A stretch of 64,000 nt of DNA from Planctomycetota bacterium (GTDB lineage Bacteria > Planctomycetota > UBA1135 > UBA2386). Shown here piece after piece: positions 31,339-49,365 of this stretch. The position numbers and the translations under genes are program-made. Within the stretch, counting starts at the first letter, position 1, and the number at the start of each line of letters is the position of its first letter. The notes under the pieces were generated by a model. It was not told the origin of the DNA. It saw nothing but the letters and a program-made list of their open reading frames with translations, and did no database searches. The DNA is taken from contig OZ245838.1 in the NCBI GenBank assembly GCA_965228735.1, forward strand, positions 2,656,001-2,720,000, read 5' to 3'.

Positions 31339-31986
31339 CTACCGAATCGGATCGCCGATCACGATTGCCACACGGCGGTTCGCGGCCTTGTTCGAGCCGA
31401 GCGGATCGAACGGCCCGTAGCCGACGACGGCGATCGCGGACTCCGGCACGCCCTGCGAGACGAGGTAGCGCGCAACCGAATCGGCGCGCTCGCTCGAGAG
31501 GTGACGGTTGCTGCGGAACTTGTTCTTCGTGCGCCGGATCGGATCGGTGTCCGTGTGGCCCTCGACGAAGATGCGCTTGCCCGCGTGCCGCGACTTGAGA
31601 ACGCTCGCGACGTTCTGCAGCACGCGGTGCGCCGACGACTTGAGCGCGGTGCTGCCGGAGTCGAACGTGACGGAGTTGTTCACGTCGATGCTCAGGCGGC
31701 CGCGGCGGTAGGACACCGACGCGTCGTCGCCGACGGCGCGCTGCGTGTCCGAAACCTCGTCGTTCGACCGCGCCGGCGTCGCCGACGCGTCACGCAGCGC
31801 GGCCTGCGCCGCCTGCTCACGCCGGAGCAGTTCGTCGTTCTCACCGCGCAGCTGGGCCACCTGGCCATTGAGCTCGCGGATGCGCGCGTCGCGCTCGCGC
31901 AGCATGTCCTGGTAGCGCGTCGTGCAACCGGCGCTGAGCATCAGGATGGAAGCGGAGAGGAACAGAATCGATTTGCGGAACAGCAT
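31339..31986 (-). CDS. OmpA/MotB-family peptidoglycan-binding lipoprotein
   Basis: Lipobox LSAG-C, coiled coil, FDSGS, VEGHTDTDPI, NRHLSSERADSV, NRRV. Confidence 0.9.
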   Translation of the reverse strand: MLFRKSILFLSASILMLSAGCTTRYQDMLRERDARIRELNGQVAQLRGENDELLRREQAAQAALRDASATPARSNDEVSDTQRAVGDDASVSYRRGRLSIDVNNSVTFDSGSTALKSSAHRVLQNVASVLKSRHAGKRIFVEGHTDTDPIRRTKNKFRSNRHLSSERADSVARYLVSQGVPESAIAVVGYGPFDPLGSNKAANRRVAIVIGDPIR

Positions 31987-32069: not shown

Positions 32070-33065
32070 TCAGGTTCGCCGAGCGCGGCGCAGCAGCAGG
32101 AAGAGGGCAACGAGTGAGGCGAGCCCGACGACGAGCAACAGCCACGGCGCGTTCTCGCTTTGGCGCTGCCAATCGGGCCAGGTCACGAACAGGAAGTGCT
32201 GGATCGGGTCGCCGGCGAACAGCGCGATCACGGCGCCGAGCGCGAGATACGGGCCGAACGGGATCTTCGACGCGGCGCCGCGGCGCATCACGGCGACGAT
32301 GCCGAACGCGGCGCCGAGCACGCACGCGAGGAACATCGTGAGCAGCGCGTTCTGCCAACCGACGAACGCGCCGATCATGCCCATGAACTTCACGTCCCCG
32401 AATCCCATGGCCTCCTTCTTGAAGGCCCAGGCGCCGAGGATGCGGATGCCCCACGTGAGGCCGCCGCCGACGACGAGGCCGGCGAGGCTGCCGAGAACGG
32501 TCTCGACCGCGGGCGGCACGCTCGGATCGTCGATCAGCGATCCCGCGACACCCGGCCACAGTCCCGCGAGCAGACCGATCGCCATACCCGGCTTGGTGAG
32601 TCGATCCGGCAGGATGAAGTGATCGATGTCGATGAACGTGCACGCGACGAGCAGCGCGAGGAACGTCGCGAGCGCGACGAACGCGCCGAGCGCGACGCCG
32701 TGCGGCACGAAGCCGTCCTCGAACAGCTCCAGCGCGGGACCGAAGCTCGCGCCCGTGCCGGGCACGTTCGGCGGATAGCGCGCGAGCAACAGGAACAGCA
32801 CGGCCGTGAGCAGTTCGACCGCGGGATAGCGGACCGAGATGCGCTGTCCGCAGCACCGCGCCTTGCCCCGCAGCAGCAGCCATCCGAGCACGGGCAGGTT
32901 GTCGTGCCAGCGGATCGGGGCACCGCAGTGCGGGCAGTGCGAACGGCCGCCGAGCGAGCGCTTGCTCGGATCCTCCTGCGGCAGTCGGTACACGACGACG
33001 TTCAGGAACGAGCCGATGCACGCCCCGAAGAGCGCGGCTCCCACCTGGAACACCGCCGTGGACAT
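32070..33065 (-). CDS. pilD: Prepilin peptidase (A24) PilD
   Basis: GSFLNVVVYRLP, SHCPHC, W.DNLPVLGWLLLRGK.RCC, FIDIDH, MGFGDVK, IPFGPYLA; likely start ATG 33065. Confidence 0.95.
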   Translation of the reverse strand: MSTAVFQVGAALFGACIGSFLNVVVYRLPQEDPSKRSLGGRSHCPHCGAPIRWHDNLPVLGWLLLRGKARCCGQRISVRYPAVELLTAVLFLLLARYPPNVPGTGASFGPALELFEDGFVPHGVALGAFVALATFLALLVACTFIDIDHFILPDRLTKPGMAIGLLAGLWPGVAGSLIDDPSVPPAVETVLGSLAGLVVGGGLTWGIRILGAWAFKKEAMGFGDVKFMGMIGAFVGWQNALLTMFLACVLGAAFGIVAVMRRGAASKIPFGPYLALGAVIALFAGDPIQHFLFVTWPDWQRQSENAPWLLLVVGLASLVALFLLLRRARRT

Positions 33066-33302
33066 TGAACGCGGATACGCTGCTGCTGACCGGAACGGAG
33101 GCGCGACAGACACACACCTCCGGCACGGGAACCGCGGCCCCACCGGCCGCCGCCCGTCGCGCTGACCCACGACGTGCGAGATGCCCCCGACCGCCGCATC
33201 ATACGGTCACGCCGAATCGAATCCAGGGCGCTCCGCACAACATTGCGCGCCCGTCAACCGCACCCATGACATCAGGATCGGGGTGGCAGGGCCGTCGCGC
33301 CG

Positions 33303-35207
33303 TCAGCGATCCGCGAGCCGCAGCTCCTCGAAGCTGGGCAGCGGCAGGCCCGCGACGAGATCGGCCGACACGAGGAAGCGGCCGAAGCTGCCGGGCTCGA
33401 GCGCGAGCCATTCGCCGTCCGTGGCGCGGCGCGGCCGGGCCAGGCGATCCGACCGCAGGTCGGCACGATCGGGCTGGACCGGGTCCGCCGGCGCGGTCTG
33501 CCATTCGACCCGCAGCGCGGGATCGACGTCGACGAAGCGCAGCACTCCGCGATCGCGGTCGCGGCCGAGCTCGCGCCACTCGGACCTCGCCTGCGCCCGG
33601 ATGCGCGCGCCCGGCGCGAGCCCGTACTCGAACTCGACGGTCGTCGGGAACGACTGCCCGCGCGGTCCGACGATCGGCGTCGAGCCGCGCGCGACGCCGC
33701 GTTCAACGGCCAGCACGGTGTTGTACGGCATCTCGCCGCCGAGCTCGATGCGCGCGGCCGACGCGACCGTGAGCGCGGTCTGGTCCGTCGGCAGCGGCCG
33801 CGCGGTCGTGACCGTGCCCGACAGCCAGATGTCCCCCGCGGCGACGAGCGCGGCCGGGGCCTGAGCGAGCACCTCGCTGGCCGGCGCCCCGCGCTGCAGC
33901 CGCGGCACGAGCTCGGTCGGGGTCGAAAGTTCGAGCGTGCCCGCGACGCGGATGCCGCCGCAGGCCAGGAGCTGCACCGGCACGGACGACTCGACGCGCA
34001 CGCGCACGCCGGCCGGGATGTCGATCGCGAGGAACGGGAAGTCGGCGCCGACGCTCTGCACGAGCACGCCGTCCCCGCGGTCGAACGGCACGCCGGGCCG
34101 CAGCGTGATGTCGGCCTGCGGCCGGAAGACCCCGAGACTGCCGTCCCCGGCCTCGATCCGCACGCGCGGCCGCACGAGGCCGGCGCGGGCTTCGAAGCCC
34201 GGCTGCAGTTCGTCGTCGCCGACCAGCCCACCGTCGTCGGTGGGCCACGCGAAGAGCGGCAACGCCGAACCCGCGACGACGAGCCAGAACTGCGCCTGAC
34301 CGACGGGGCCGCCGAAGACCTCCTGGTCCGCGAGGTCGCGCAGCGAGTGCGGACCGTCCGCGAGGGTCACGCTCAGTAGTTCGCCAGGATCGAGTTCGAC
34401 GCGCGGGCCGCCGCCGTGGAGCCGCGGCTCGGAGCCGAGGTCGAGCTCGACGGTCGAGCCCGGGTGCTGATCGAGCGGCGCGGTGAGCAGCCGCGCGCGG
34501 CGCACTTCGAGGCGCTGCTGGGGTTGCGCGAGGTGCACGATGAACGCCTCGGGCCGCACCGTCGTCGGCAGCACGGGCAGCGTGAAGTGCAGCCGCAGCC
34601 GCGGCGCGTCGGCCGGCAGCCGACTCGCGATGTCGCCCGGCAGCTGACGATGCTGCAGGAATGGCAGCTCGGTGCTCGGCGGCCGCAGCGGTGCCGGCAG
34701 CCGCCCGTTCGCGGTTTGGACCGGACCGAACTCCGCGGTCCGGAAGCCGAGCGTCGGCGCCGCGGCCAGGCGCCGGCCGTCGACCGCGCGCACCGCGTCG
34801 GGCCGCGGGTAGCTCGCGACCACGAGTCGATAGCTCTCGCCCGGCAGGAACGAGCCGTCGTCGAGCGCGGGCGACAGCGGCGGCTCCGGCGCGAACGTCA
34901 CCCAGTTGGTCCCGGTCCGCAACGTCCCGGGCACCGCGTGGCCGGCGGCGTCGAACACGGCGACCGAGGCGGCGGTCACGCTCAACGGGTCGATCGCGTC
35001 CGAGAAGTAGACCGTGACGTTGTCGTTGAGCAGCAGCGGCGCGGCGTCGGCCTCGCCGAGGTCGTGGGGCGAGACCCGCGTCACGCTCAGGGGCGCGGCC
35101 GGCGGCGGCGACGACCGCCAGCACCCGGCCGCACCGAGCAGTGCCGTGCAAGCCGCGACTGCCGCGATCCTGGATACCGCCCGGGGCTCGACCATTCGGC
35201 TCGTCAT
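33303..35207 (-). CDS. Lipoprotein with Ig-like domains; shortened relative of 39762..43205
   Basis: Lipobox LGAAG-C; LNDNVTVYFSDAIDPLSV; F.P..P....DDGSF.PG..Y matches FVPRFP....DNGGFKPG..Y of the 1147-aa protein. Start uncertain (35195-35225). Confidence 0.75.
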   Translation of the reverse strand: MTSRMVEPRAVSRIAAVAACTALLGAAGCWRSSPPPAAPLSVTRVSPHDLGEADAAPLLLNDNVTVYFSDAIDPLSVTAASVAVFDAAGHAVPGTLRTGTNWVTFAPEPPLSPALDDGSFLPGESYRLVVASYPRPDAVRAVDGRRLAAAPTLGFRTAEFGPVQTANGRLPAPLRPPSTELPFLQHRQLPGDIASRLPADAPRLRLHFTLPVLPTTVRPEAFIVHLAQPQQRLEVRRARLLTAPLDQHPGSTVELDLGSEPRLHGGGPRVELDPGELLSVTLADGPHSLRDLADQEVFGGPVGQAQFWLVVAGSALPLFAWPTDDGGLVGDDELQPGFEARAGLVRPRVRIEAGDGSLGVFRPQADITLRPGVPFDRGDGVLVQSVGADFPFLAIDIPAGVRVRVESSVPVQLLACGGIRVAGTLELSTPTELVPRLQRGAPASEVLAQAPAALVAAGDIWLSGTVTTARPLPTDQTALTVASAARIELGGEMPYNTVLAVERGVARGSTPIVGPRGQSFPTTVEFEYGLAPGARIRAQARSEWRELGRDRDRGVLRFVDVDPALRVEWQTAPADPVQPDRADLRSDRLARPRRATDGEWLALEPGSFGRFLVSADLVAGLPLPSFEELRLADR

Positions 35208-35327
35208 GCTACCTCGGTTGGTCAAAACGAACGACCCTGCGGCACGCTCCCGACCAATTCCTCCCCCACCAACGGACGACGGCGCGCCCGGATCCAGGAT
35301 CCGGACGCGCCATCGGGCTCGTCTCGC

Positions 35328-35467
35328 CGATCGGCGATCGGCGATCGGCGATCGGCGAACCGAGCGCCTCGACCTACTGTGGCACGACTCGATAGACGAT
35401 CGCCAATTGGCGATCGTCGAACCGAGCGGCTCGACCTACTGCGGCACGACTCGATAGACGATCGCCA
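35328..35467. repeat. Compound repeat: (CGATCGG)4, 59-bp direct repeat (35347..35405 / 35409..35467) and 24-bp palindrome 35395..35418
   Basis: Three mismatches between the 59-bp copies; the second copy contains the end of the 35436 gene. Confidence 0.9.
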
Positions 35468-38400
35468 TGCTGCGCAGCGACGGCGACAGCGCCGGCGTCA
35501 CGTCGACGTTGTTCGTCATCGTCAGGCGCGCGTTGAGGTAACGCGGCAGCAGACCCGTCGCCGGGTTGCGGATCTGGCCGAGCTGGCCCTCGGTCACGTA
35601 CCGGGTCAGACCCGTCGTCCCGACGCGCGGCTGATCGCCGCCACCCGTGAGGTGGCCCTCGGCGTAGTTCGCCTGCGAGTAGCGGAACGCCTCACACGCG
35701 TAGTTCGGGTTCAGCAGGTTGCCGCGGCCGTCGAACGTGTCGTCCGGGGTCTGGCCCGCGCCATCGAACGTCGGGTTGTAGAGCCCAGGGTCAGCGCTCG
35801 GATCACCGATCGCCTCGACGCCACGCAGCTCGAGCACGACGGACGTGCCGGCCGGCTGGCGACCCGCGGGCGGATCGAGCTGGGTGACGAGGTTCGTCAC
35901 GCGCAGGTTCGTGCCGATCCCGGCGAGGTTCGGGAAGCCGTCCGAGAACTCGATCGTCGGCGTGCCGCTCGGATCGTTCACGAACTCGGCGCGCTGCGGC
36001 TGCAGCGTGTCGATGAAGCCGAACGTCATCGTGGACACCTTGCGCACGAAGTCGGCCTGGGCCCAGTTGAGCATGCCGTCGCGCGGCGGGGCCTGGAACA
36101 GCGCGCGCTCCAGGTTGCCGTAGCCGGCGTCCTTCAGCACGTTGTACGGACCGGCCGCATCGAGCGTGTTCGCCGGGTCGACGATGATCTCGGAGTTGCC
36201 CGTGAGCGGGACACCGCCCGAAGCGTGCACGCGGACCGACGGCCACGCGGGGCGCGTGCCACAGCCGGCCGGCACGCCGTCGTAGTAGCCGCCCCACGGC
36301 GCGAAGCCGTAGCTCGGCGGGCCGAGCAGCGCGAGCTGGAACGAGTTGCTCGCGATCGCGAGGCCGTTGGCCGCGCTGTCGGCGAACACCTTGTAGTCGA
36401 CCAGCAGCGGCAGCGCGATCGGGTCGTGGTCGTGGCGGTGGTTGCCCTTGAAGTCGCCCGGATCCATGACCCACTCGGACGGGCCTGCGACCTCACCGTT
36501 CGCCGGGAACGCGTCCGAGATCCACGGCGAACTGATGTGCGCGGTCCAGTCGTCGTTCGGATCCTCGGCGCCAGGCGTCTGCGCGCCGCCGAGACCGATG
36601 ACCTGGCCCGACGCATCGATCGTCACGAGGCGCGAGTCACGCCAGGTGTAGCTGCGGTCGAAGCGCGGGAACGGCACGTAGGTGACGTTGAACGCCGAGC
36701 GGAACGCGTTGTTCGGGTTGATCGTGTAGACCTTGTCCGCGAACACCGGCACCTGCGCGGTGCCCTCGAGCACGTTGTCGGCGAAGACCGTCGACAGCGC
36801 GCTGCTGTTGCTCGTGCACAGGTAGTCACAGGTCGGCAGGGTCGGCGGCACCGGCGGCATGGCCGTCGGATCGCCGGGCACACCGGCGTTCAGGCGCCAG
36901 ACCTCGTCGGGCCGCTTGTCGCTGTGCGACAGCGACATCGACATGCGATCGAAGACGTCGAAGAAGACCGTCTCGTCGTTGAACGGCGACCAGTAGAGCT
37001 GGTCGACGTCGATGCCCATGTCCGTCGCCTGGTGGTAATCGAGGGAGAAGTCGTCCTCGAGGTAGCGCATCTGCATGCGCGACCCGCGGGTGTTCAACGG
37101 CTCGATCACCCGGCCGACGCTCTGCGGCACGGTCTGATAGAACTCGTAGACCGTCGGCACGATCGGCGGCGCGATCGAATCGAACATCCGCGGGTTCCAG
37201 TAGAGCAGCCCGGTGTGGACGTTCATCATCTGGTCGACCGGCGCGAGGCCGATCCCGCCCTGCGGCGACGTCGGGCCGGTGCCCTCGGTCTCCCAGTCGA
37301 AGTCCGGATCCCAGCACTCACCACGCGTCACGCGGCTGATCGTGCCGAGGTTCTGGCTGTCCGCGGTGCGGCTGAAGCGCACGCCCGCGGCGCCGATCAG
37401 GCGGCCGTCCTGCAGGCGGAACTGGCCGAACAGGTCGACCGAGCCCGGCAGCGAACCGTCCTCGTCCGAGTCCCGGAACAGGTAGGTGTGCCAGCCCACG
37501 AGGTTGTCGGGCATCGCTTCGTAGATCTGGAGGTCGACCGACCAGCTCGCGAGCGGGTTGATCGGATCGCCGAAGACCTCGACCGGGTTGCCGCCGAGGT
37601 CGAGCACGCCTTCCTGGCCGAGCTTGACGTGGAAGCCGTAGGTCTCGGAGGTGTTCTCCTCGTGGAAGAAGCCGAGCTGCGGCTGCAGGCGCAGCACCGT
37701 GCCGTCCCCACCGAGGTCGGCGAGGCGCGACGGCACGACGCGAGCGGTCGCCCGCTTCGGGTCCGTCATCTGCTCGGCGAACGTCTCGTCGAGGATCGAC
37801 GTGTTGGTGAGCACCAGGTTCTCGGTGTTGTCGATCTGGTCGAGATCGAGCGGCTTGGTGAACTCGATCGCGACCGACGACTGCGGCACGAGCTTGCCCG
37901 CACCCGGCTGGCCGGCGGCCGGCGGCTGCGGCTCGATGCGCAGGAACTGCTCACGCCACTGCGAGTCCGAAACGGCCTGGCTGCCGGTCGAGAACGGCAC
38001 GTCCTCGTAGTAGCGGGCGCGCAGGATGCAGTCGCGCCCCTCGGGTGCCCCGAGCGGATCCTCGGGCGCGAGGAACGAGTGCAGCGTGCCCTCCGAGTCG
38101 CGGCCGCCGGCGAGCGTCGAGACGCGCACATCGATCTGCGGCAGCGTCTCGCCCTGGTCGCCATTCGCGCTCAGGCCGATCGGCAGCGCGCCGCCGACCC
38201 GCGAGCCGATCGCGAGGTTCTCGAGGATCTCGGCCTGCACCGTCACGGTCTCGAGCGCGCCCGTCGAGAGCTGCACCAGGCGCTCCTGCGTGAGGATGTC
38301 GCCGGCGCGCAGCGCGCGCACCGTCGGCACGTTGACCGGGCCGACCGGCACGTCGTTGGCCGCGAGCGGGCCGTCGACGAACGGGTAGCGACCGCGCACC

Positions 38401-39467
38401 GGCACGAGGCTGTCGCGCTTGTTCAGCCGGACGATCCGGTTGGCGGTGTCGATGCTGACGATGCCCATCGGCAGGCTGCCGACGATCATCGGGGTCTCCG
38501 ACTCGGCGAGCTTGCCCGCCGCGCCGTCGTTGAGGTTGCCCGACCGGAAGTCGCGGATCACCGACTGACGCCCCGCACTGTCGACGCCGTTCAGATTGAC
38601 GTTGCCGTCCTCGCCGACGAAGAACGTCGAGACGACCGAGCCGCGGGCCGGAATCGCGAGGCGAATGTTCGCCGTCGCATTGTCCACCGACTCCGGCAGG
38701 CCGGAGGTCGTGAAACCGCTCTGCCCCTCACCCCCGAGAATGGTCGTGTCGATGACGATCCGGTCGCCCTGCGGGATCACGCGCGCCGGCAGGATGCGGA
38801 ACGCATCGACCGGCTGTACCACGTTCGGGTCACCCTTGAACTCGAGCAGCTGGATCGCCGACGGGTTGAACTGGAAGAACTCCTCCGTGACGTTCACCGC
38901 GCCGCTGAACTGCAGCCGCAGCGCCGCGTTGCGCGGCACGACCGGCACCGGCCGCAGCTGCGTGTTCTGACCGCGGAACGCCGGCGCGAGCTCCGTGAGC
39001 CCGGTCTGACACTCTTCGAACGCCGCGTCGAAGCGCGCCTGCTCGGCGCTGCCGTCGCGGTTGTCCCACAGAATCACGAGCTCTTCGTGGCCGACGGTCT
39101 TGTCGAACGGGCGCAGCTCGAAGGTCGCCGTCGGCACCTCTTCGCCGGCCGCGTCGAACAGGCTGTCCGACCGGATGTTCGGGTTGATGACGACGTTCTC
39201 GGCCACGAGCGCGAGCTGGCGGTTGAGCCGGACGCGCCGATCCGCGATCGACGGGTCGATGCGCTGGTAGGCGTAGATGTCGACGAGGCGTCCGAGCTGG
39301 ACGCCTTGCAGCTGTGCGCGCTGGGCATCGGGCCCGACGGTCGCAACCGACGAACCCTGGTTGCAACCAGGAACGATCATCAGCAGCGCCAGGACCAGAA
39401 GTGCCAGTGGCGCGAGGGCCACACTCCGGAAGAGGCTCGAGTGTTGAGCTTGCATGCGGGTTTTCAT
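35436..39467 (-). CDS. Very large lipoprotein (about 1340 aa), paralog of 43600..47505
   Basis: Start MKTRMQ with GGAG SD; lipobox IVPG-C; shares GRLVD.Y, VPRNAALRL, GLPES, IRDFRSGN, LRLQP, YW.PF and DPP...PAGTS with 43600..47505. Confidence 0.85.
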   Translation of the reverse strand: MKTRMQAQHSSLFRSVALAPLALLVLALLMIVPGCNQGSSVATVGPDAQRAQLQGVQLGRLVDIYAYQRIDPSIADRRVRLNRQLALVAENVVINPNIRSDSLFDAAGEEVPTATFELRPFDKTVGHEELVILWDNRDGSAEQARFDAAFEECQTGLTELAPAFRGQNTQLRPVPVVPRNAALRLQFSGAVNVTEEFFQFNPSAIQLLEFKGDPNVVQPVDAFRILPARVIPQGDRIVIDTTILGGEGQSGFTTSGLPESVDNATANIRLAIPARGSVVSTFFVGEDGNVNLNGVDSAGRQSVIRDFRSGNLNDGAAGKLAESETPMIVGSLPMGIVSIDTANRIVRLNKRDSLVPVRGRYPFVDGPLAANDVPVGPVNVPTVRALRAGDILTQERLVQLSTGALETVTVQAEILENLAIGSRVGGALPIGLSANGDQGETLPQIDVRVSTLAGGRDSEGTLHSFLAPEDPLGAPEGRDCILRARYYEDVPFSTGSQAVSDSQWREQFLRIEPQPPAAGQPGAGKLVPQSSVAIEFTKPLDLDQIDNTENLVLTNTSILDETFAEQMTDPKRATARVVPSRLADLGGDGTVLRLQPQLGFFHEENTSETYGFHVKLGQEGVLDLGGNPVEVFGDPINPLASWSVDLQIYEAMPDNLVGWHTYLFRDSDEDGSLPGSVDLFGQFRLQDGRLIGAAGVRFSRTADSQNLGTISRVTRGECWDPDFDWETEGTGPTSPQGGIGLAPVDQMMNVHTGLLYWNPRMFDSIAPPIVPTVYEFYQTVPQSVGRVIEPLNTRGSRMQMRYLEDDFSLDYHQATDMGIDVDQLYWSPFNDETVFFDVFDRMSMSLSHSDKRPDEVWRLNAGVPGDPTAMPPVPPTLPTCDYLCTSNSSALSTVFADNVLEGTAQVPVFADKVYTINPNNAFRSAFNVTYVPFPRFDRSYTWRDSRLVTIDASGQVIGLGGAQTPGAEDPNDDWTAHISSPWISDAFPANGEVAGPSEWVMDPGDFKGNHRHDHDPIALPLLVDYKVFADSAANGLAIASNSFQLALLGPPSYGFAPWGGYYDGVPAGCGTRPAWPSVRVHASGGVPLTGNSEIIVDPANTLDAAGPYNVLKDAGYGNLERALFQAPPRDGMLNWAQADFVRKVSTMTFGFIDTLQPQRAEFVNDPSGTPTIEFSDGFPNLAGIGTNLRVTNLVTQLDPPAGRQPAGTSVVLELRGVEAIGDPSADPGLYNPTFDGAGQTPDDTFDGRGNLLNPNYACEAFRYSQANYAEGHLTGGGDQPRVGTTGLTRYVTEGQLGQIRNPATGLLPRYLNARLTMTNNVDVTPALSPSLRSMAIVYRVVPQ

Positions 39468-39761
39468 GTCAGGGATCTCCCCGTTCTTGCGCCAGGCACG
39501 TCCATCCGCGATTTGCTGATTGGAACTCACGAGGCCTGGAGCAGCGAACGAGTCAGGGCTTCGAGGGAGAGCGGTAGGTGGGTTCATCGGTGCCGGCGAC
39601 GACCGAGAGCGAGCGCAGGTCCGAAACGACGATGGCACGGCTGGTCGGCAGCGCTGCGGTCGGAGTCGGATGCGGCAGGCTCATGATGGGATCGATCACC
39701 GGCGGTAAGGGGTAGGGGCAACCAGGCCGCCCGAACAACCAGGCAGCCCGAAACAGGATGT

Positions 39762-42700
39762 CTAGAACCGGAACGGCAACCGCAGGAACTGCAGGGCCGG
39801 ACGCGGGGTGTCCGGGCTCAGGAACGGCGGGTTGTCGGTCGGCACGCTGCGGTAGCGTTGGTCGAACAGGATGTCCAGCTGGACGAACGTCGCCCCGAGC
39901 TGGCGAATGTCCTCGATGACCTGCGGGTCCTCGAGGTCGTAGATGTATTCGTTGGCCGCGGCGGGGTAACGAACCGCGGAGGTCTCGTCGGCCGGGTTCT
40001 GGTGGAACGCGAAGCCGATGCGGACGTTGGAGACCGGCACGCGCGAGTTCGGCTGGCTGCCGGGGTAGGTCGCGCCGAGGCCTTCGACGCCGTTCGTGAC
40101 GAACTCGAAGAACTTCGCCCGTAGCTGGACCTTGGTCGCCTCGAGCGGCAGCGGACCGGAGTCGGTCGCGAGCCGCAGGCGGCTGTCGCTGTGCGCGAGG
40201 ATCCGGAACGAGCCGGCCACGAAGCCGGTATCGTCGATGAGTTCGGCCTCGTACTGGCTGTAGAGGTTGGCGACGCTGCCGAACGCGCCCGGCGCGGCTT
40301 CGACCGCGTAGGCGGGCTGGCCGCGGTAGGTGTCCGCGTCATCGAGGGCGATGATGTCGACCTGCCCGCCGATCGCCGGGTAGACGACCTTGGCGATGTC
40401 GCCGACGAGCTCGAAGCTGGCGTAGCCGTCCGCGGGGTTGGTGCCCGCGAACTCGTAGCGCGGCCCCTCGAGGCCGGCGTTGGTCGGATCGAGCACGCCG
40501 CGCGGCCGGTTGTCGACCGACATCAGCGGCCGGCGCGCGCTGCGGCCCGTGTCGAGCCACTTCGTGCGGATGCGCGACTGCTCGGCGAACGGCGTCGGCA
40601 TCAGCACCGGCTGCGGCCGGATATCGCCCGCCACCGTCGGGGTCGGGTTGTTGAAGTCGTCGACGAGCTGCCCGATCTCGTTCGGGAAGCCGCGCCAGCC
40701 GAGCGCGTCGATCTTGGCCGAGCCGGTCAGCGGCAGACCGAACTCGAGGATGTCGACCTTGTCGTCGAGGATGGTGTTGCTGCCGTCCTCGTTGGACATC
40801 GGCTCGCCAGCGGGTGGGCCGGGCGGCGCCATCAGCTGCACGATGCCCATGCCGCCGAAGCCGCCGAGCGGCGCGTCGTCGTAGTTCCGCTGGAACTGGA
40901 ACTGCGGCGGCGAGCCCTGGATCGGCGTGCCGTTGCCCGGGTACTTGTTCTGGACGATCGGCGAGCCGAACAGGTTCGTCTCGCAGACGCCGCCGTCCGC
41001 GGAGATCGCGAACTGGTAGTCGTTCTGGGCGAAGTTGCCGCCGCGGGTCGAGATCTTGATGCCCGTCGCCGACATCAGGACGACCATGCCGCCCGCGCCG
41101 CCGCCGCCGCCGCCGCCCGCGCTGGACGAGCCGTTGACCTCGCCTGCACCGCCGGCGCCACCATCCGCGGAGATGCGGCCGGTCTCGCTGATGACGATGT
41201 CGTCGAGCGCCTTGATGACCAGGACGCCACCACCGCCACCACCGGCGCCGCCGGTGCTGTCGTTGGAGAAGTTCGGATCCTCGGTCGTGCAGGAGTTGTT
41301 GTACGACAGGTCGCCGCCGCCGCCGCCACCGCCGCCGCCCAACGGGACGGACAGTTCGCCGGCGATGCGCAGGCCGCGTCGGATGTCGAGGCCGGCACCC
41401 CAGAAGTTGTTGTCGCTGCGCGAATCGGTGAAGACCGCCGCCCCGGATGCGCCGCCGTCGAGCTGACGCGCGTTCGAACCGCCGTCACCGTTGCAGCCGC
41501 GGCCGCCCGTGCCGTTCACCTGCGGGAAGATCGGCAGCGGGTTCTGGTTGGGGTTCGGGATCGAGCCGGCCGGCACGGTCTGCGCCGGGAACGCCGGGTC
41601 GCCCTGCGTCGCGAGCGCGCCGCCACCACCACCGGAGCCGCGACCACAACCCGCGAGGCACGCGAGGGTGCCGCCCGTGCCGCCGCCCAGCGGCTGCTCG
41701 AGCGGGCCGTTGCCGGTGCCGCCGAAGTTGTCACGCTCCGTCCTGCTCGGCGAGCCGGCCCCGCCGGTGCCGCCGCCGCAGGCGCCGAAGCCGCCCTGCT
41801 TGGGGAAGTTCGCGGTGCCGATCTGCGTGCCCTTGACGCCATCGCCACCTTCGACGAGCAGGTTGCCGTCGATCTGGACCTTGCCGCTGACGAGCAGGAC
41901 GAGCGGCTTGGTGCCGCGGCCGGAGACCGTGACGCCCGTCGGCACGCGGAAGCGGCGGAAGTTGAAGATGCCGCCCGAGACGTTGAACGGCGTGCCCGTC
42001 GTCGGGATGACCGTCGTGAAGTCCGTATTGAGCACCGCGTTGCTCAGCGGCTCGTACTCGACCTGCGTCGGGCTGCCTTCGAACGCGAAGCCGGCGCGCA
42101 CGAAGCCCGGGCCGACCTCGCCCACCGGCTCGCCGAACGCGGCCGTGAAGTCGACCTGGCTGCCGTCCTCGAAGTCGGCGATCAGCGCATCGAACTGCTG
42201 CTGGTAGGCCGCCTGCGTCGCGAACGTGCCGAAGAAGCGGTTGTAGGCCGCGTTCGAGACGTTGGACTCGCCCGAGATGTCCGCGACGCTGCTCTCGACG
42301 ACGACGCGAATGGTCGCGTTGTTCGGCAGCACGCCGACGGGCCGCAGCAGCACGGTGGAGCTGGCGAGCTCGTTCGCCTCGAGCTCGACCTCGGTCGGGA
42401 TCCACTGGTTGGGCCCGAACTCGGGATCGTCGTACTCGAGAAAGATGTTGCCGCGGTTGGTCGTGCTGCGGGTCAGCGGGTTGGGATCGAACGCGACCGG
42501 GATGTTCGTGCTGGCCGGGTTGATCGGCTGATCGAACGTCAGGCGGACCTCGACCGGCGGCGCCCCGAAGCGGTTGAGGATCACGCTGCCGTCCTCGGCG
42601 CGCGGCGTCACGGTCAGACCCGTGCGGCGGGGGCCGCCCGGCAACGTGTTGCGGAACAGCTGCGACGGCGAGGTCCCCTCGGCCGTGGTGAACGTGAAGC

Positions 42701-43205
42701 TGATCGGCTGCAGCAGCGCCTTGCCACCCACATCGCGCAGCACCGTGCCGTTGACGCGGTTGCCGCCGACGAGCTGGACGATGTAGCGCCGACCGGGCTT
42801 GAAGCCGCCGTTGTCGAAGGTGTTGTTGGTCGGGAACCGCGGCACGAACTCGAGGCGCCGACCGGCCGTGTCGTCACCGGGCGAGGTGCCGATGCGGAAC
42901 GTGCCCGCGACGTTCTCCTGCAGCGCGTTGCCGAGCTGATCGAAGACCTGGAACGAGAACGTCGTGAGGTTGACGCTCGACAAATCGACCTGGTTGCTGA
43001 AGTCGATCCGGATCGGATCGTTCAGGAACAGCTGACCGTTCGTCTCGGGCTGCGTGCCGAGCACGACGAAGTCGCCGCCGGTCTTGATGCCAGCGGTGTC
43101 CGAGCCGCTGCTGGAACAACCGGCAGCGAGCAGGCCGAGGCCGGTGAGTGCGGCCAGCGCCAGGGACGAAGGAAGCGAGCGGATCAGTCGATTCATGACG
43201 TTCAC
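39762..43205 (-). CDS. Large lipoprotein with Ig-like and polyglycine-rich domains
   Basis: Lipobox LLAAG-C; FSNQVDLSSV, FDQPINP, VADISG; GGGGGGGGG...ISADGG...GGGAGG repeats. Start 43196 or 43205. Confidence 0.87.
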   Translation of the reverse strand: MNVMNRLIRSLPSSLALAALTGLGLLAAGCSSSGSDTAGIKTGGDFVVLGTQPETNGQLFLNDPIRIDFSNQVDLSSVNLTTFSFQVFDQLGNALQENVAGTFRIGTSPGDDTAGRRLEFVPRFPTNNTFDNGGFKPGRRYIVQLVGGNRVNGTVLRDVGGKALLQPISFTFTTAEGTSPSQLFRNTLPGGPRRTGLTVTPRAEDGSVILNRFGAPPVEVRLTFDQPINPASTNIPVAFDPNPLTRSTTNRGNIFLEYDDPEFGPNQWIPTEVELEANELASSTVLLRPVGVLPNNATIRVVVESSVADISGESNVSNAAYNRFFGTFATQAAYQQQFDALIADFEDGSQVDFTAAFGEPVGEVGPGFVRAGFAFEGSPTQVEYEPLSNAVLNTDFTTVIPTTGTPFNVSGGIFNFRRFRVPTGVTVSGRGTKPLVLLVSGKVQIDGNLLVEGGDGVKGTQIGTANFPKQGGFGACGGGTGGAGSPSRTERDNFGGTGNGPLEQPLGGGTGGTLACLAGCGRGSGGGGGALATQGDPAFPAQTVPAGSIPNPNQNPLPIFPQVNGTGGRGCNGDGGSNARQLDGGASGAAVFTDSRSDNNFWGAGLDIRRGLRIAGELSVPLGGGGGGGGGDLSYNNSCTTEDPNFSNDSTGGAGGGGGGVLVIKALDDIVISETGRISADGGAGGAGEVNGSSSAGGGGGGGAGGMVVLMSATGIKISTRGGNFAQNDYQFAISADGGVCETNLFGSPIVQNKYPGNGTPIQGSPPQFQFQRNYDDAPLGGFGGMGIVQLMAPPGPPAGEPMSNEDGSNTILDDKVDILEFGLPLTGSAKIDALGWRGFPNEIGQLVDDFNNPTPTVAGDIRPQPVLMPTPFAEQSRIRTKWLDTGRSARRPLMSVDNRPRGVLDPTNAGLEGPRYEFAGTNPADGYASFELVGDIAKVVYPAIGGQVDIIALDDADTYRGQPAYAVEAAPGAFGSVANLYSQYEAELIDDTGFVAGSFRILAHSDSRLRLATDSGPLPLEATKVQLRAKFFEFVTNGVEGLGATYPGSQPNSRVPVSNVRIGFAFHQNPADETSAVRYPAAANEYIYDLEDPQVIEDIRQLGATFVQLDILFDQRYRSVPTDNPPFLSPDTPRPALQFLRLPFRF

Positions 43206-43599
43206 GAGCAGTGCACGGAAGCCGGGGTCTGCGGTGGTCCGGTCTGGAGCACGACGGCAGGCGGGGTCACGTCCGCCGGGGTCGTCGCGCCGGCCCGGAC
43301 CTCCCCCGGGAGGGGGAGTCGTGGGAGAGGCTTCGCGGGAGAGGTTGTCTCGGAAAGTGTACCCCGACGAGGAGCCCGAAGCGCCGCACCGAGTCGCACG
43401 GACCGCACCTCTGAGGGGCGCGGGTCACGGCATCGGCTTGCTGTCTTCGTTGTCACCGGGGGGTCAGGGAGAGGGGAAGAGATCGGGAGTGGGACGAACC
43501 GCGGCGGGCCGGCCAGCCGGGGCCGCAGTTGCCGGGCCCGAGCGGGCCCGGCGCGTTCTCAACAGGTTTGCTGAGATCGGGTTTGCTGAGATCGGGAAC

Positions 43600-46500
43600 T
43601 CACTGGGATTGGAAGCGCCACGTCAGCGCGAACGTCTCGATGACCGGCGCGACCGGCGGGCTCGCGTCGACGTTGTTGCTCGTCACGAAGCGCCAGTTCA
43701 CGTAGCGCACGTCGCGCGGCGTGAACGCTTCGTTCGGACCGGCGAACTGCAGCGTGTAGGTCGGGTCGACGAGCGTGTTCGGGTCCTCGACGTAGGTCGT
43801 GACGTTCTTGTTGTAGAAGTAGGTCCACCAGTCGCGGTTGCCGCGCTTGTCCCACTTGCGGATGTGGGCGTCGCCCGCGATGAACGGGTCGAGCGGGAAG
43901 CTGTCGGCGTCCGGCCTCATCTGCGCCTTCACGTCCCCGGTGAACGGGTTGGCCGGGTAGATCGACGTGTTGCCGTCGACCCAACCATCCCAGTACCACG
44001 GGCTCGGATCGACCACGCCCGCGCCGCGGAACTGCGGCACCAGCGACGTGCCGGCCGGCAGGTCGCTGAGCGGCGGATCGAACTCGAACGCGAAGGTCGG
44101 AACGATGTTCGCCGGCCGCGTGCTCGCGCCGTTGGCCAGGTAGAACGGGCCGAGCCGCGGATCGACGTAGCCCTCGGGCACGCGGTGCGGGTTGTTGAGG
44201 TCCACGAAGCCGTTCGTGATCACGCTCTGCCGCTTCAGCATGTCGATCATGATCCAGTAGAACGTGTTGTCGCGGGCCGCCGTCGTGCCGCCCGTCGGGG
44301 TGTAGCCACCCTGGGCGGTGTTCCAGCGGGTCTCACCCGGACCGACGCAGATCGGCCCCTGGCCGGACTGCAGCGCCGCGCGGCCGGAGGACAGCGCACG
44401 GAAGTACGGCGTCGGGCTCGACTGCACGGTCAGCGCGACCTGCCAGCCGTTGGTGCCGAGCGCGACGTAGCCGTTGCCGGCCGGCAGTTCGGACGAATCG
44501 CAGTAGGTCCAGAAGTCGGCGAGCAGCGGCAGCGCCACGGCGCCGGTCAGACCGCCCGTGAAGTTGTCGGTCTGCGTCGACGTCAGCTGGACGTTCGTCA
44601 GATCGTTCCAGAACGTGTTGGCGAACACCGTCGTCTCGACGCCCGGGTTGGCCGGATCCTCGCCGACCAGCCAGCGGCGGCCGATGCCGTTGTTGTAGGG
44701 CGACGCGATGTAGGGCGTGACGGACGAGCTCTGGCCCGTGTCGCGACCTTCGTCGCAGTCGAGACCCTGCTCCACCACCGTCTCGTCGCGGAAGACGAAG
44801 TACGGCTTCTGGAAGTCGGGCAGCGGCAGGAAGCGGTTGACGTTGTTGACCTCGTAGATCACGTCGGCCGGATCGATGACGAGCTGCGCGTCGACGTACG
44901 CCGGGTGCGGCGTCGGCTGGCTCTCGATGATCTGGCCCGTGCCGGACGGATCGGGGTTCCAGAGGAAGTTCTTCTGGAAGTTCGACTCGAGGCCCGAGTC
45001 CGGCAGCGACGGCAGCGAACTGAAGTCACCGACGCACGGCGCCGGGCGGTATTCACTGTGGCCGAGGAACAGGCTCACGCGGTCGAACTCGTCGTACTCG
45101 AGCACGGTGCCCGTGAACGGCGCCCAATACATCTGCTCGACGTCGAGGTTGAAGTCGAACGGGTCGGTGCGCGACAGGCTGAGGTCGACCTCGCGCCAGA
45201 GCGTCTGCAGGCGGCAGCCGTAGGGGTTCAGCGGGTTCTGGATGCCCTGCTGGAACACCGTGGTCGAGGAGTTGGCCGCGACCTGGGCTTCGTTGCTGAC
45301 CGTCTCCGGGCACCAGCGCAGGATCGAGCTCTGCGGCGCGACCGGCGCCTGGTTGAGGTTGTCCGCGACCTGGCGCGAGCGCGAGGTCGGGCGCGCCTGC
45401 AGGCGACCGTCGACGTAGATGAAGCCGCCGAACATGTCCTGCAGCGGGTAGGCGAGCGCGAAGCCACCGTTGCCCGGCTCGGGCACTTCCGCCGGCATGA
45501 AGTAGGACGGCTGCGCGTCCTCGTCGGCGCTCGCGAAGCGGCGGACGACGGAGACCGCGAGGTTGTCCTCGAAGAACGGCGTCGAGCCGTTGACGCGGGT
45601 GTCGACCGTGAACGGGATCACGACGTCGCCGCTGTTGAGCGCGGTCGCGCCCTGCAGGTCGAGCGCGTTGCCCGCGAGGTCCTGGATGCCGCCTTCAGTG
45701 GACGACGCGATCAGGTGCAGGAAGTAGCGGTAGTCCGCGCCGGCCGGCGCGTTCCGCATCGTGTTGTCGAGGTAGAACCCGGTCGACGGCTGCAGGCGCA
45801 GCGCGGTGCCGGAGTTGTCCTCGTCGAACACGCGCGCACCGACCAGGTAGGGCGTGCGGTACTTGGCCTCGTTGAACACGCTCGGCTCCATGCCGGCCGT
45901 GCCTTCGCGGTTCGGCAGCGTGTCGATGAAGTCCTGGATGCTCTCGTCGCTCGTGAGGTCACGCATCGCGAAGAAGAACGTGTCGGCCCACTTCACCGTC
46001 TCCATCGCGACGGGCTTGGTGAAGCGCACGACCGCGCCGGCGAACGGCGAGACGTTCTCGTTCGGCGCGCTCGGCGTGCCGTTGAGGTTGGGCAGCGGCT
46101 CCGGCGTGAACGACAGGAAGTTGCGCGGGTCGTCGCCGCTCCCCATGGGAGGAGCCCCGTCCCCGGCCCGGAACTCGGCGACGCAGACGGCGCGCGGCGC
46201 GTTCAGCACGAGCCACTGCTCGCGCTCCTGCGGGTTGGTCGGGAAGCCCGGCTGATTGCGCGGGTCGAGGCTCGACAGGTCGGGGATGTTGCGGATGCGC
46301 ACGCGCACGTGCTGCACCCCGGGCGCGCCCTGGTCGTCGATCGGGTCGACGACGACCTCGGACGTGCCGAACGGCACACCGGTGCTGTCGGGAATGATGC
46401 GGAACACGTCACCGCGATCGATCTCGTGCGCGACGCCGTTCTTGAAGACCGTGATCTCCTGCGTGAACGCATTGATGCGCTCGACGCGCTCGAGATACAT

Positions 46501-47505
46501 GACGATCTCGCCGATCACGCGCAGCGGCAGCGGATCGCGCACGAAGCCGTTCGACAGATCGGACGACTCGTCGTTGCGGTTGCCGGACCGGAAGTCGCGG
46601 ATGATCGAGTTGCGGCCGCTGTTGTTGAGGCCGGTGAGGCCGAGGCGCGGACGCAGGCTCGGGATCGCGAGCGGGCCCTCGAGGGCCAGCGCGACCCGGA
46701 TGTTGGCGCCGACCTGGTCGGGCGACTCGGGCAGGCCGGCCGCGTTGTTCTGGGTCTGGTACTGCAGGCCTTCGCTCCCCAGCAGAACCGGATCGAGGAT
46801 CAGTTGGCGACCGCGCGGCACGACGCGCGTCGCGAGCGGCCGCGTGCCGCCGGGCTGCTCCGGATCGCCCGCGATCGCGAGCAGCTGCACGGCTTCGGTG
46901 TTGCGCAGGCCCGTGATCTGGCCCTGCGCGTTGCGATCGACGAAGAAGCTCTCGTCGACCCCGAGCTCCGCGGAGAACGTCAGGCGCAGCGCCGCGTTGC
47001 GCGGCACCACCGAGAACGGCAGGCCCGGCCCGTTGGTCGCGTAGCGCATCGGCGCGACCTCGCGCAGTTCGACGTCGAGGTCGTCGAAGGCCGCGGCAAA
47101 CTCCTCGCTGGCCATGTTGCGGGGGATGAACAGGCGCGGCTGCAGCGTGTCGGGATCGGCGCCGATGAAGTCGTAGAGCACTTCGTCGTCGCGCTTGATC
47201 TCGTTCGTGCCGCGCTCGTCCCGGATGTCGGAGCCGATCAGCACGTCGCGCCGGAAGAGCTCCGGCGTGCTGCCTTCGGCCGTGACGCGCAGACCGTAGA
47301 CGTCGACGAGACGACCGAACTCGATCCGCAGCAGCTCGGGCTGCACGGTCGTCGGGGTCACCCCGCCGGTAGCATCATTGCTGCCACTGCACGCTGCGAA
47401 GAACGCGACGCCGGTCAGCGCTGCAACTCGCAGTGCTGCCGCTGACGCGGAACCCGTCGACCGGGCGGTCATGCGAGGGGAACGACCTGAGGAAAAGTCT
47501 GCCAT
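43600..47505 (-). CDS. Very large lipoprotein (1301 aa), first gene of the four-gene lipoprotein cluster
   Basis: Lipobox FFAA-C; IQDLAGN Ig-like motif; colinear motifs with 35436..39467. Confidence 0.87.
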   Translation of the reverse strand: MADFSSGRSPRMTARSTGSASAAALRVAALTGVAFFAACSGSNDATGGVTPTTVQPELLRIEFGRLVDVYGLRVTAEGSTPELFRRDVLIGSDIRDERGTNEIKRDDEVLYDFIGADPDTLQPRLFIPRNMASEEFAAAFDDLDVELREVAPMRYATNGPGLPFSVVPRNAALRLTFSAELGVDESFFVDRNAQGQITGLRNTEAVQLLAIAGDPEQPGGTRPLATRVVPRGRQLILDPVLLGSEGLQYQTQNNAAGLPESPDQVGANIRVALALEGPLAIPSLRPRLGLTGLNNSGRNSIIRDFRSGNRNDESSDLSNGFVRDPLPLRVIGEIVMYLERVERINAFTQEITVFKNGVAHEIDRGDVFRIIPDSTGVPFGTSEVVVDPIDDQGAPGVQHVRVRIRNIPDLSSLDPRNQPGFPTNPQEREQWLVLNAPRAVCVAEFRAGDGAPPMGSGDDPRNFLSFTPEPLPNLNGTPSAPNENVSPFAGAVVRFTKPVAMETVKWADTFFFAMRDLTSDESIQDFIDTLPNREGTAGMEPSVFNEAKYRTPYLVGARVFDEDNSGTALRLQPSTGFYLDNTMRNAPAGADYRYFLHLIASSTEGGIQDLAGNALDLQGATALNSGDVVIPFTVDTRVNGSTPFFEDNLAVSVVRRFASADEDAQPSYFMPAEVPEPGNGGFALAYPLQDMFGGFIYVDGRLQARPTSRSRQVADNLNQAPVAPQSSILRWCPETVSNEAQVAANSSTTVFQQGIQNPLNPYGCRLQTLWREVDLSLSRTDPFDFNLDVEQMYWAPFTGTVLEYDEFDRVSLFLGHSEYRPAPCVGDFSSLPSLPDSGLESNFQKNFLWNPDPSGTGQIIESQPTPHPAYVDAQLVIDPADVIYEVNNVNRFLPLPDFQKPYFVFRDETVVEQGLDCDEGRDTGQSSSVTPYIASPYNNGIGRRWLVGEDPANPGVETTVFANTFWNDLTNVQLTSTQTDNFTGGLTGAVALPLLADFWTYCDSSELPAGNGYVALGTNGWQVALTVQSSPTPYFRALSSGRAALQSGQGPICVGPGETRWNTAQGGYTPTGGTTAARDNTFYWIMIDMLKRQSVITNGFVDLNNPHRVPEGYVDPRLGPFYLANGASTRPANIVPTFAFEFDPPLSDLPAGTSLVPQFRGAGVVDPSPWYWDGWVDGNTSIYPANPFTGDVKAQMRPDADSFPLDPFIAGDAHIRKWDKRGNRDWWTYFYNKNVTTYVEDPNTLVDPTYTLQFAGPNEAFTPRDVRYVNWRFVTSNNVDASPPVAPVIETFALTWRFQSQ

Positions 47506-48024: not shown

Positions 48025-49365
48025 TCAATCGACGCTCGCGAACCCGGCGGCCTCGGCCTGCGCCTCGGTCTCGAAGTAGATTCGGCGCTTGGCCGGGATC
48101 TTGTTCGCCGGACCGATGCCGTACGGGTGGAACACGCGCGCCTTGGTGTCGCCGACGAACCGCACGGTGAGTTCGCGTTCGCAGTAGGCGCAGCACAGGA
48201 CCCCGAACGGCTCTTCCGCGCGCAGCCGGAAGTCGCGCACGAGGTAGCGCACGCCTTCGCCGTTGGTGATGCAGCGCTCGTTCTGACAGCGCAGCACGCT
48301 GCCGGCATCGATCCCGCCGTGCGATGCCATGTGCTCGGGCGGCGCCGCGCGCAGCTGGATGCGGCCGAGCAGGAACGCCATGAGCGCCATGCGCATCGGC
48401 ACGCCGAGCTCCGCCTGCCGGAAGTAGATCGAGCGCGGATCGTCATCGACCTCGTAGTCGATCTCGTCGACGCGCGGCAGCGGATGCATGATGCTCGCGT
48501 CGCGCGCCGCGGCCGCACCGAGCGTGCTGCGCGTCAGCCGCGGATAGTCGGCCGTGTCCTCACCGGCATGGCGCTCCCGCTGCGCGCGCGTCATGTAGAT
48601 CGCGTCGATGCGATGGACCTCGACGTTCGTCAGCTTGGTGAACAACGCGAGCTGGTGCGGCTTGCTGGCCGTGAGATAGGCCGCCGAGTTCTTCGCCGAC
48701 GCGATGCCCGGCAGATCGTCCATCGTCGCGGTCGCGGCCTGCACGCCGAAGTCGCGATGCAGGCGCGTGAGCACGTAGTCCGGCAGTTCGAAGCCCGGGT
48801 ACGGCGTCGTCACGATGTTGGCGCCGAACCGCGCAAGCGCGTAGCAGAACGAGTGGATCGTGCGCGAGTAGCGCAGATCGCCGCAGAGCACCACCTCGAG
48901 GCCCTCGAGCCGCCCCTTCTCCTTCCACAGCGTGTAGAGGTCGCACAGCGTCTGCGTCGGATGCTCGTGGGCGCCGTCGCCGCCGTTGATGACGGGGACC
49001 CGGGCATAGCGCGACGCGACCCGCGCCGCGCCGTCCTGCGGATGTCGCACCACGAGGATGTCGGCGTAGCTGCCCCCCACCACGCGCACCGTGTCGGCGA
49101 GCGATTCGCCCTTCGCCGAACTCGTGCTCTCCGTGTCCGCCGCCGTGATCACGCCGCCGCCGAGCCGCAGCATCGCGGACTCGAAGCTCAGCCGGGTGCG
49201 CGTGCTCGGCTCGAAGAACAGCGTCGCCATGATCGCGCCGCGACACAGGTCCGACCAGTCGTGCAGGTTCTGTCGGAATTCCTCGGCGTGATGGAAGAGC
49301 TCGAGGATCTCGGCCGTGCTCAGATCCTCGATCGATACGAGGTCACGCTTCGCTACGTCGGTCAA
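48025..49365 (-). CDS. pyrB: Aspartate carbamoyltransferase catalytic chain with fused C-terminal PyrI-type Zn domain
   Basis: FFEPSTRTRLSFE, KGESLADT, HEHPTQTL, GDLRYSRT, MHPLPRVDEI; tail CQNERC...CAYCER; TTG start. Confidence 0.93.
   Translation of the reverse strand: MTDVAKRDLVSIEDLSTAEILELFHHAEEFRQNLHDWSDLCRGAIMATLFFEPSTRTRLSFESAMLRLGGGVITAADTESTSSAKGESLADTVRVVGGSYADILVVRHPQDGAARVASRYARVPVINGGDGAHEHPTQTLCDLYTLWKEKGRLEGLEVVLCGDLRYSRTIHSFCYALARFGANIVTTPYPGFELPDYVLTRLHRDFGVQAATATMDDLPGIASAKNSAAYLTASKPHQLALFTKLTNVEVHRIDAIYMTRAQRERHAGEDTADYPRLTRSTLGAAAARDASIMHPLPRVDEIDYEVDDDPRSIYFRQAELGVPMRMALMAFLLGRIQLRAAPPEHMASHGGIDAGSVLRCQNERCITNGEGVRYLVRDFRLRAEEPFGVLCCAYCERELTVRFVGDTKARVFHPYGIGPANKIPAKRRIYFETEAQAEAAGFASVD

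Follow-up and report, generated by a model that had tools for sequence, protein, structure and literature searches.

The window analysed here is a 64,000-nucleotide stretch of a planctomycete genome (G000:C1:2656001-2720000, on one contig of 7.19 Mb; G-labels denote genomes, L-labels loci and f-labels, such as f1, f9 or f68, genome families). It carries four large lipoprotein genes in a row, here named A, B, C and D, and this array is real, deeply conserved, undescribed and outside every curated family. A-D are four paralogues of one unnamed superfamily with two heads, and in a widespread planctomycete order, most of it uncultured, they count among the largest of the near-universal envelope proteins. 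The array sits inside an old type IV pilus and housekeeping superoperon, yet it is separable from the pilus. The chances are about even that A-D make up a core set of adhesins or receptors at the cell surface, with immunoglobulin-like (Ig) stalks and displayed by type II secretion.

The source genome probably belongs to the OM190/UBA1135 clade that was proposed as Saltatorellota. Cultured members of this proposed clade are described as changing shape, fusing cells and forming tissue-like aggregates, with none of their surface proteins assigned (10.1101/817700). A full-text literature search retrieved no description of the cassette; its coverage excluded subscription journals and the supplements of that preprint (pilus gene maps, Fig. 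S5, Tables S2-S3), which may show the locus. No cultured-strain name appeared among the best 120 matches of the homologue searches. The cassette offers concrete targets for surface proteomics and cryo-electron tomography.

Four paralogous lipoprotein genes

All four genes are co-oriented, as the earlier note had read them, and lie on the minus strand. Gene A (43600..47505) encodes 1301 aa with the lipobox cysteine at position 39, and gene B (39762..43205) 1147 aa with Cys30. Gene C (35436..39467) encodes 1343 aa with Cys35 if translation starts at the ATG at 39467; its longest frame has 1400 aa. Gene D (33303..35207) encodes 634 aa with Cys29, and its longest frame has 640 aa. Lipoboxes were called by our own heuristic, a hydrophobic stretch ending in the lipobox cysteine, and not by SignalP. 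With this heuristic the cysteine is present in each of A, B, C and D. Among 119 homologous frames from loci L021-L060 it was detected in 110, the nine misses being truncated or read-through frames and two proteins lacking such a cysteine. Across the family alignments Cys1 is almost invariant. At L044 (G034) two tandem A-type genes have no lipobox cysteine by the heuristic, and their products are possibly released or otherwise anchored forms.

A and C are colinear paralogues (25% identity over 951 columns, E 5e-39, and 31% over 337, E 3e-29), and the seven motifs quoted for this pair in the earlier note were all recovered in the alignment. The Ig-like N-terminus proposed to be shared by B and D was likewise found, Big_5 being the sole Pfam family detected in the four proteins (35.6 bits in B and 28.9 bits in D, gathering cut-off 23.6), and the B-D alignment extends past this region (27% identity over 492 columns, E 2e-13). 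Pfam scans detected no family in A or C, and NCBIfam none in A-D. The proteins look non-enzymatic from these scans and from the predicted Ig and lectin-like folds, in agreement with the absence of a catalytic motif noted before.

The description of the genes as operon-like needs qualifying, and a single transcript cannot be taken for granted: the intergenic gaps measure 228-519 bp, and the C-D gap holds a strong, GC-rich 18-bp hairpin (35274..35318, minus strand; -37.0 kcal/mol, where the best window in 15 shuffles gives -21.8 +/- 1.6). This hairpin may be a terminator or an RNA-stability element. The same gap (window 35208-35435) also contains a stretch that nearly repeats the end of gene C and short CGATCGC repeats.

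Conservation and gene order

Matches to A were found in 40 of 41 related genomes, and the B profile detected B-type genes in 110 of the 111 genomes of the order that are at least 90% complete, 2.5-Mb genomes included. Across a phylum sample of 301 genomes the A profile matched 75, with full-length matches in G000 and each of the 17 order members and partial ones elsewhere, and the B profile matched 89. Gene order was followed in 74 loci retrieved by A motifs alone, from the best 80 of 103 matches. Here A is followed by B in 56 loci and stands alone in 12, six loci being cut off (56 of 68 informative loci), and at the informative loci B is followed by C in 45/45 cases and C by D in 40/40. The aspartate carbamoyltransferase gene pyrB precedes the array in all 48 informative loci. 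In a second set of 20 loci, picked for holding both A and C, 19 extend far enough to show what comes after D. It is pilD in every one, and D is the last array gene wherever the junction is seen.

Array copy number varies by tandem duplication, and other families carry arrays of the form ABD, AABD, ABAD and AAAABD. The two alternating types described in the earlier note therefore hold for the ABCD array in the window but are a local arrangement. Homologues were not scattered: in profile searches and the synteny check they cluster together and lie among pil genes.

Median identity to G000 over the 20 loci is 56% for A, 54% for B, 50% for C and 43% for D, next to 54% for pilD, 53% for ompA, 61% for the paralogue of elongation factor G (EF-G) and 75% for pyrB. 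A exceeds coaX in these loci, and A-D all fall below pyrB and the EF-G paralogue. In midpoint-rooted trees (34 and 24 rows) A, C and D each form one clade, and the A/C split appears to have arisen by duplication in the common ancestor of families f1 and f7.

The array is separable from the type IV pilus

In the window the array is preceded by pyrB, whose 446-residue frame (48025..49365, minus strand) also encodes a fused PyrI C-terminal domain, and further upstream by a gene for a PDZ protein with an N-terminal hydrophobic segment and a C-terminal PDZ domain, which is probably GspC-like (51229..52521, minus strand). Downstream follow the prepilin peptidase gene pilD/gspO (32070..33170), a gene for an OmpA-domain lipoprotein of the peptidoglycan-binding type (31339..31986) and a block of EF-G paralogue, pilT, pilB, pilC, a TPR protein and two pilins (18737..27590), all on the minus strand. 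Pfam confirmed that the cluster runs into pilD and the OmpA lipoprotein (A24 peptidase and OmpA domain). This ompA gene is conserved in the order and was not seen at the f68, f30 and f93 loci. The complete superoperon is present in G254, in the order pilM-N-O-Q, rng, rplU, obg, pilU, PDZ, coaX, trmE-like, pyrB, array, pilD, ompA, EF-G paralogue, pilT, pilB, pilC, pilA; G194 has the same order without pilU, and in G000 the first half of the superoperon lies 3.8 Mb from the array.

The array is nevertheless retained where the pilus genes are gone. PilM was over the cut-off in none of the 16 genomes of families f9 (6), f6 (1) and f68 (9), against 5/5 controls, and the pattern was the same with the G000 PilM as query; in 11 of these 16 genomes, which are 86-92% complete, mapping placed the cassette next to pilD. 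The locus genes pilM/N/O/Q, pilU, pilT, pilB, pilC and pilA were not found in the three families, and their best PilB-like matches drop to about 40% identity. The loci of G032, G039, G308, G389 and G029 read rng-rplU-obg-PDZ-...-pyrB-A(A)BD-pilD-ompA-EF-G, with pilD as the sole pil gene in the fetched stretches, and in six f68 genomes A- and B-type genes stand ahead of pilD. Retention of the cassette is thus independent of the downstream pil block. The converse was also observed: G201 (f30) and G299 (f93) have a full pilus locus with a D-like gene only before pilD, and their A and B homologues lie elsewhere in the genome, partly in tandem arrays. In G042 and G206 the array genes follow pyrB and pilD is not adjacent. 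With both directions of loss seen, A-D fail as genes co-retained with the PilM-Q, PilB, PilT and PilC machine. At least one PilT-family ATPase and several PilB/GspE-like ones persist in all 40 genomes tested, and another pilus type may remain in the f9, f6 and f68 genomes.

No N_methyl or PilY1 domain was matched in A-D by Pfam or NCBIfam; a PilY1 search of G000 gave no match either, but no control matched in that search. At L235 and L236 (f2), pilT, pilC and pilins are present at the locus and pilM in the genome, and the interval from pilT to pilC gives no full match to pilB.

Predicted architecture

Structures were predicted with AlphaFold for B (121 sequences, pLDDT 91.4, pTM 0.83) and, for the A type, for the complete 1127-residue homologue L038, which is 45% identical to A (64 sequences, pLDDT 87.3, pTM 0.83); the domain borders of gene A were mapped over from the L038 model. 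The models suggest that the A/C and B types share one chassis, consisting of a lipid anchor, a flexible linker, two Ig domains and a split galactose-binding-like jelly roll with an inserted head. For A/C the head is predicted to be another jelly roll, for B a beta-helix containing long runs of glycine. For A the predicted domains are Ig1 (55-321), Ig2 (327-635, with an inserted beta-barrel at 333-442), the split jelly roll (649-706 and 1093-1301) and the second jelly roll inserted into it (707-1092). In B they are Ig1 (45-178), Ig2 (189-332), the split jelly roll (333-375, about 873-929 and 1032-1147), the beta-helix with glycine runs (376-872, with six conserved cysteines) and a small beta-barrel (about 944-1029). 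In both models the strands of the split jelly roll flank the large insert, part before and part after it, and the small beta-barrel occurs at differing positions. Conserved cysteines are present in A-type and B-type heads alike, and the B head contains 27% glycine overall.

In a fold search with the B model the Ig domains matched CopC, LdtMt2 and SbsC (Z 9.8-11.2, rmsd 2.2-3.2, about 97 residues aligned); the SbsC match of the L038 model reached Z 8.2, and alpha-2-macroglobulin was also among the Ig matches. The split jelly roll matched CBM16, EphA2, Fbs1 and the phi812 baseplate (Z 6.8-8.4). The A head matched the Bxb1 tail tip (Z 8.9, rmsd 3.8, 159 aligned), an esterase N-domain (Z 8.9), the lectin-like domain of Cwp84 (Z 7.8) and PHR (Z 7.2), and the B head matched the beta-helices of two-partner secretion (HxuA, Z 8.6, rmsd 2.6, 125 aligned) and, weakly, glycine-rich viral proteins. 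The Ig and lectin-like modules thus emerged from the structural check proposed earlier, and the view of A-D as uncharacterised proteins stood up, in that a full-length match to a characterised family was not found in Pfam, NCBIfam, PHROGs, the PDB or Foldseek. With Foldseek, neither model obtained a match along its full length (TMq <= 0.10 in the PDB and <= 0.17 in a viral library), and PDB sequence searches with family profiles returned zero matches for the A type and only weak ones for the B type (E >= 0.036). In PHROGs 1 of 34 members matched in each of two families, and the best scores in the ESM Atlas, 0.76 and 0.81, were under the lead threshold.

The common predicted chassis, the shared Ig profile and the retention of the chassis by D indicate that both types belong to one superfamily, which has two kinds of head. 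In a profile-profile comparison A and B match in the Ig domains (E 2.6e-5), and the C-terminal strands alone match weakly (E 0.003). Big_5 is found in 21/24 B/D-type and 10/34 A/C-type family rows, and the assignment of Ig domains to A and C relies on the latter ten rows and the L038 model. In D the B-type chassis is kept and most of the glycine-rich head is gone, a stretch of about 350 residues in B corresponding to about 80 in D; the D proteins of f9 and f6 are down to about 240 residues. One lipoprotein scaffold can, it appears, carry lectin-like or polyglycine modules, as a chassis with interchangeable heads.

Export route

The residues that follow the lipobox cysteine are rich in glycine and serine in three of the four proteins. 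The Gly/Ser share at positions +2 to +6 is 0.86 in A (n=22), 0.87 in B (n=20) and 0.63 in C (n=22), and 0.19 in D, with a background of 0.29 for 142 predicted G000 lipoproteins. A motif of this type after the cysteine is needed for type II surface display of InvL in Acinetobacter, as reported in PMC12802150. An aspartate at +2, as expected for Lol avoidance, is not consistent (10/22 C proteins, 2/22 A proteins). Among five genomes tested, GspG was over the cut-off in four, and a GspD-like secretin was present in all five, each time under the cut-off. In G308 (E 7.5e-11) and G032 (E 9.4e-8) the GspC model finds its best match in the PDZ gene of the locus, under the cut-off both times; no score was obtained for the PDZ gene of G000 or G029, and in G313 the best match is a different gene. 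PilD and the PDZ protein are encoded by the genes that stay with the array where the pilus genes are gone.

Taken together, the GspC-like PDZ neighbour, the GspG- and GspD-like genes and the Gly/Ser-rich residues of A, B and C make type II secretion, rather than the neighbouring type IV pilus, the likely route and our best guess. The earlier note had suggested export by the neighbouring T4P/T2SS machinery. Dependence on the pilus did not hold, since the array is kept without pil genes and an intact pilus locus occurs without A and B, and the type II part gained indirect support from the genes and the motif named above.

Possible roles of the array proteins

How might the array work at the surface? 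The genes, their lipoboxes and paralogy, their near-universal presence in the order, the order A..B..D-pilD and the separability from the pilus are observed, and the folds are predicted. A plausible reading from there is that A-D are exported by Sec and then lipidated, and that A, B and C, being Gly/Ser-rich after the cysteine, would cross the outer membrane via the type II secretin and remain anchored outside. The two Ig domains would hold the head off the membrane, a lectin-like head in A and C and a beta-helix/polyglycine head in B. This head may bind a conserved ligand, e.g., a glycan, the matrix or another surface protein. Heads that are as conserved as their stalks argue that such a ligand is probably itself conserved. 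D, without head and Gly/Ser motif, might act as an assembly or periplasm-side partner, and tandem duplication could have given lineage-specific sets of heads. A role of A-D as type II-displayed adhesins or receptors is supported by the extracellular-type folds of the heads, the reuse of heads without an anchor, the core status of the array (110/111), the Gly/Ser motif and the type II genes.

Several points weigh against this role. Genes such as pyrB, coaX, obg and the EF-G paralogue are linked to the array as tightly as the array genes to each other, and a B paralogue lies inside an arginine operon, so neighbourhood alone carries little weight. The A model is that of a homologue and not of A itself, the Z-scores of the head folds all lie at 7-9, values that common arrangements also reach, and a ligand site was not recognised. 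Unlike classic adhesins, the heads are not hypervariable (modal residue frequency 0.69-0.76, against 0.72-0.76 in the Ig domains). The Gly/Ser motif is also carried by 27 of the 142 other G000 lipoproteins; the rule comes from Acinetobacter, and the motif may be a plain linker here. The matches to GspC and GspD, as given above, stay under their cut-offs.

Lipoproteins face the periplasm by default, and A-D might therefore form a structural scaffold between the membranes and the peptidoglycan, together with the OmpA-domain lipoprotein. The Ig matches include the periplasmic CopC and LdtMt2 and alpha-2-macroglobulin, conservation is even along the chains and, for A, B and C, close to that of pilD and ompA (56, 54 and 50% vs 54 and 53%), retention is nearly universal, and D has no Gly/Ser motif. 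We nevertheless consider a periplasmic scaffold unlikely, because the heads look like extracellular binding folds and are reused in anchorless, secreted-looking proteins, ompA is missing from the f68 loci, and array copy number is variable. Lipid-anchored S-layers built from Ig domains exist, as in the Deinococcus HPI layer, and a hetero-oligomeric surface lattice or fibre had been among the proposals of the earlier note. The Ig domains match the S-layer protein SbsC (Z 9.8, and 8.2 with the A-type model), both models are compact (pTM 0.83) and the order A..B..D is fixed. However, the codon-usage index among 2805 genes places A at the 92nd, B at the 91st, C at the 83rd and D at the 24th percentile, below a pilin (99.7) and tuf (99.9); for a weak proxy in a high-GC genome, values that are high but not extreme speak mildly against a main S-layer. 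The stoichiometry of A-D also differs between genomes, no S-layer head or type V pilin was matched among the best 50 fold rows, and the word 'S-layer' occurs nowhere in the main text of the Saltatorellota preprint (10.1101/817700). Subunits of an S-layer or fibre are therefore a very unlikely identity for A-D. The idea that they are dedicated parts or adhesins of the surrounding type IVa pilus is tempting, given their position inside the complete superoperon of G254 and a weak fold match of B to the pilin ComZ (Z 6.4). For this locus it is already largely refuted by the f9, f6 and f68 genomes, which keep the cassette beside pilD (11 genomes) and lack pilM (0/16, controls 5/5), and by the pilus loci of G201 and G299 with their lone D-like gene, and we regard it as very improbable. 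The pattern of gene loss in this way removes a tempting but wrong reading.

Another proposal connects A-type proteins with a second, unnamed domain. This domain of 85-125 residues occurs in 265 of the 4741 called G000 genes, in 244 of them at the C terminus (e.g., genome-wide examples at L187:2622-2999, L205:9256-9636 and L189:9143-9484), has no Pfam match and is confined to 64 of the 301 phylum genomes. It is a candidate sorting or anchoring tag, and A-type proteins could then be an outer-membrane dock or display platform for hundreds of C-terminally tagged secreted proteins, analogous to cohesin-dockerin or type IX attachment. Outside the order the tag is multi-copy in 27/30 genomes with a match to the A head, in 7/27 with a match to the Ig or split jelly roll only and in 9/226 without an A match, the head and Ig-only classes having been assigned by eye from the best-match ranges. 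One anchorless G000 protein fuses a signal peptide, the tag domain and A-type nested jelly rolls. Related genomes are not independent, however, and the co-occurrence may represent one clade and one event; the fusion may equally mean that the tag is an alternative anchor replacing lipid and Ig stalk; and the tag domain is found in none of A-F (E and F being two further B-type genes described below). We find such docking quite unlikely; if true, it would be a new protein-display system. Broader in scope, and in our view equally unlikely, is the idea that an undescribed surface-display system of the OM190/CL500-15 planctomycetes has this cassette as its membrane-anchored core; a type II-exported A/B/C/D platform would then dock hundreds of tagged proteins and build the sticky, remodelling surface of shape-shifting cells.

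Comparison with known systems

InvL has an Ig stalk with a lectin-like end, an architecture close to the one predicted here. InvL of Acinetobacter baumannii and PulA of Klebsiella are likewise large lipobox proteins that are Gly/Ser-rich after the cysteine, in genomes with type II genes (PMC12802150). A-D have no sequence match to them and differ in forming an array of four genes that is inherited vertically, with heads that are nested and swappable. Proteins of the Big_5 (PF13205), CopC and SbsC kind share Ig domains with A-D, which have two at the N terminus (Z up to 11.2), but Ig covers only about a quarter of each array protein, and the cell-wall-binding helices of SbsC are missing.

The phage adhesin Gp38 is a sandwich of beta-helix and polyglycine II, according to PMC12032242. 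B similarly puts long glycine runs into a beta-helix, and a polyglycine helix in B is probable by this analogy. B differs in being lipid-anchored and four times longer, with a head that is not hypervariable at domain level, and Gp38 was not among the best 50 fold rows for B. A shares its jelly roll inside a jelly roll with phage baseplate and tail-tip proteins (phi812 9euf/9eui, Bxb1 9d93, HFTV1 9h4p), which were the top Foldseek rows for the A-type model; 9euf_0 aligned to residues 578-1124 with Z 8.4 (259 aligned, rmsd 14.3). The TM-scores are 0.06-0.10, identity is 8-9%, and no tail or baseplate genes occur at the locus. Type IVa pilus loci resemble this one in that the array is embedded among pilM-Q, pilU, pilD, pilT, pilB, pilC and pilA, but A-D carry no prepilin motif and are kept or moved independently of the pilus genes. 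Type V pilins (Fim/Mfa) are lipoproteins with a two-domain pilin fold that assemble by donor-strand exchange. They were not among the best 50 fold rows, in whole-chain searches that can miss single domains.

Paralogues and other observations

Heads and barrel recur in other G000 proteins without lipobox or Ig stalk. Within the window, two divergent B-type lipoprotein genes form a tandem pair on the minus strand, E (1890-4829) and F (3-1829, running off the window; 893 aa in the genome), and several relatives also carry a B-type gene downstream of the pil block. E and F have cysteine-rich N termini and rank highest in the family by codon index, at the 97th and 99th percentile. A full-length B paralogue lies among arginine biosynthesis genes (L185:7874-11365; acetyltransferase before, argJ after), and another lies at L186, behind two radical SAM genes of the MqnC type and a TPR gene.

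Between ompA and the EF-G paralogue the window contains a plus-strand insert (27871-31296) with a pilin-like gene carrying a long (GQ)n repeat, a membrane protein gene and a histidine-kinase-like gene; these three genes had no match in the 20 family loci mapped. Elsewhere in G000 an actin of the MamK family (L205:2481-3557, G000:C1:6767480-6768556; 409.9 bits, cut-off 400) is encoded beside a tyrosine-autokinase-like gene and near two secretins, and MamK-like relatives occur in 110 of the 301 phylum genomes. Co-occurrence of this actin with the array was considered and rejected, as the actin is present in f20, f29, f56 and f60, where A/B are not listed, and was not found in f33, f42 and f61, which have B-type matches. 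G000 encodes seven secretins and two prepilin peptidases, the second peptidase, by our own reading of the gene list, in a Tad-like cluster.

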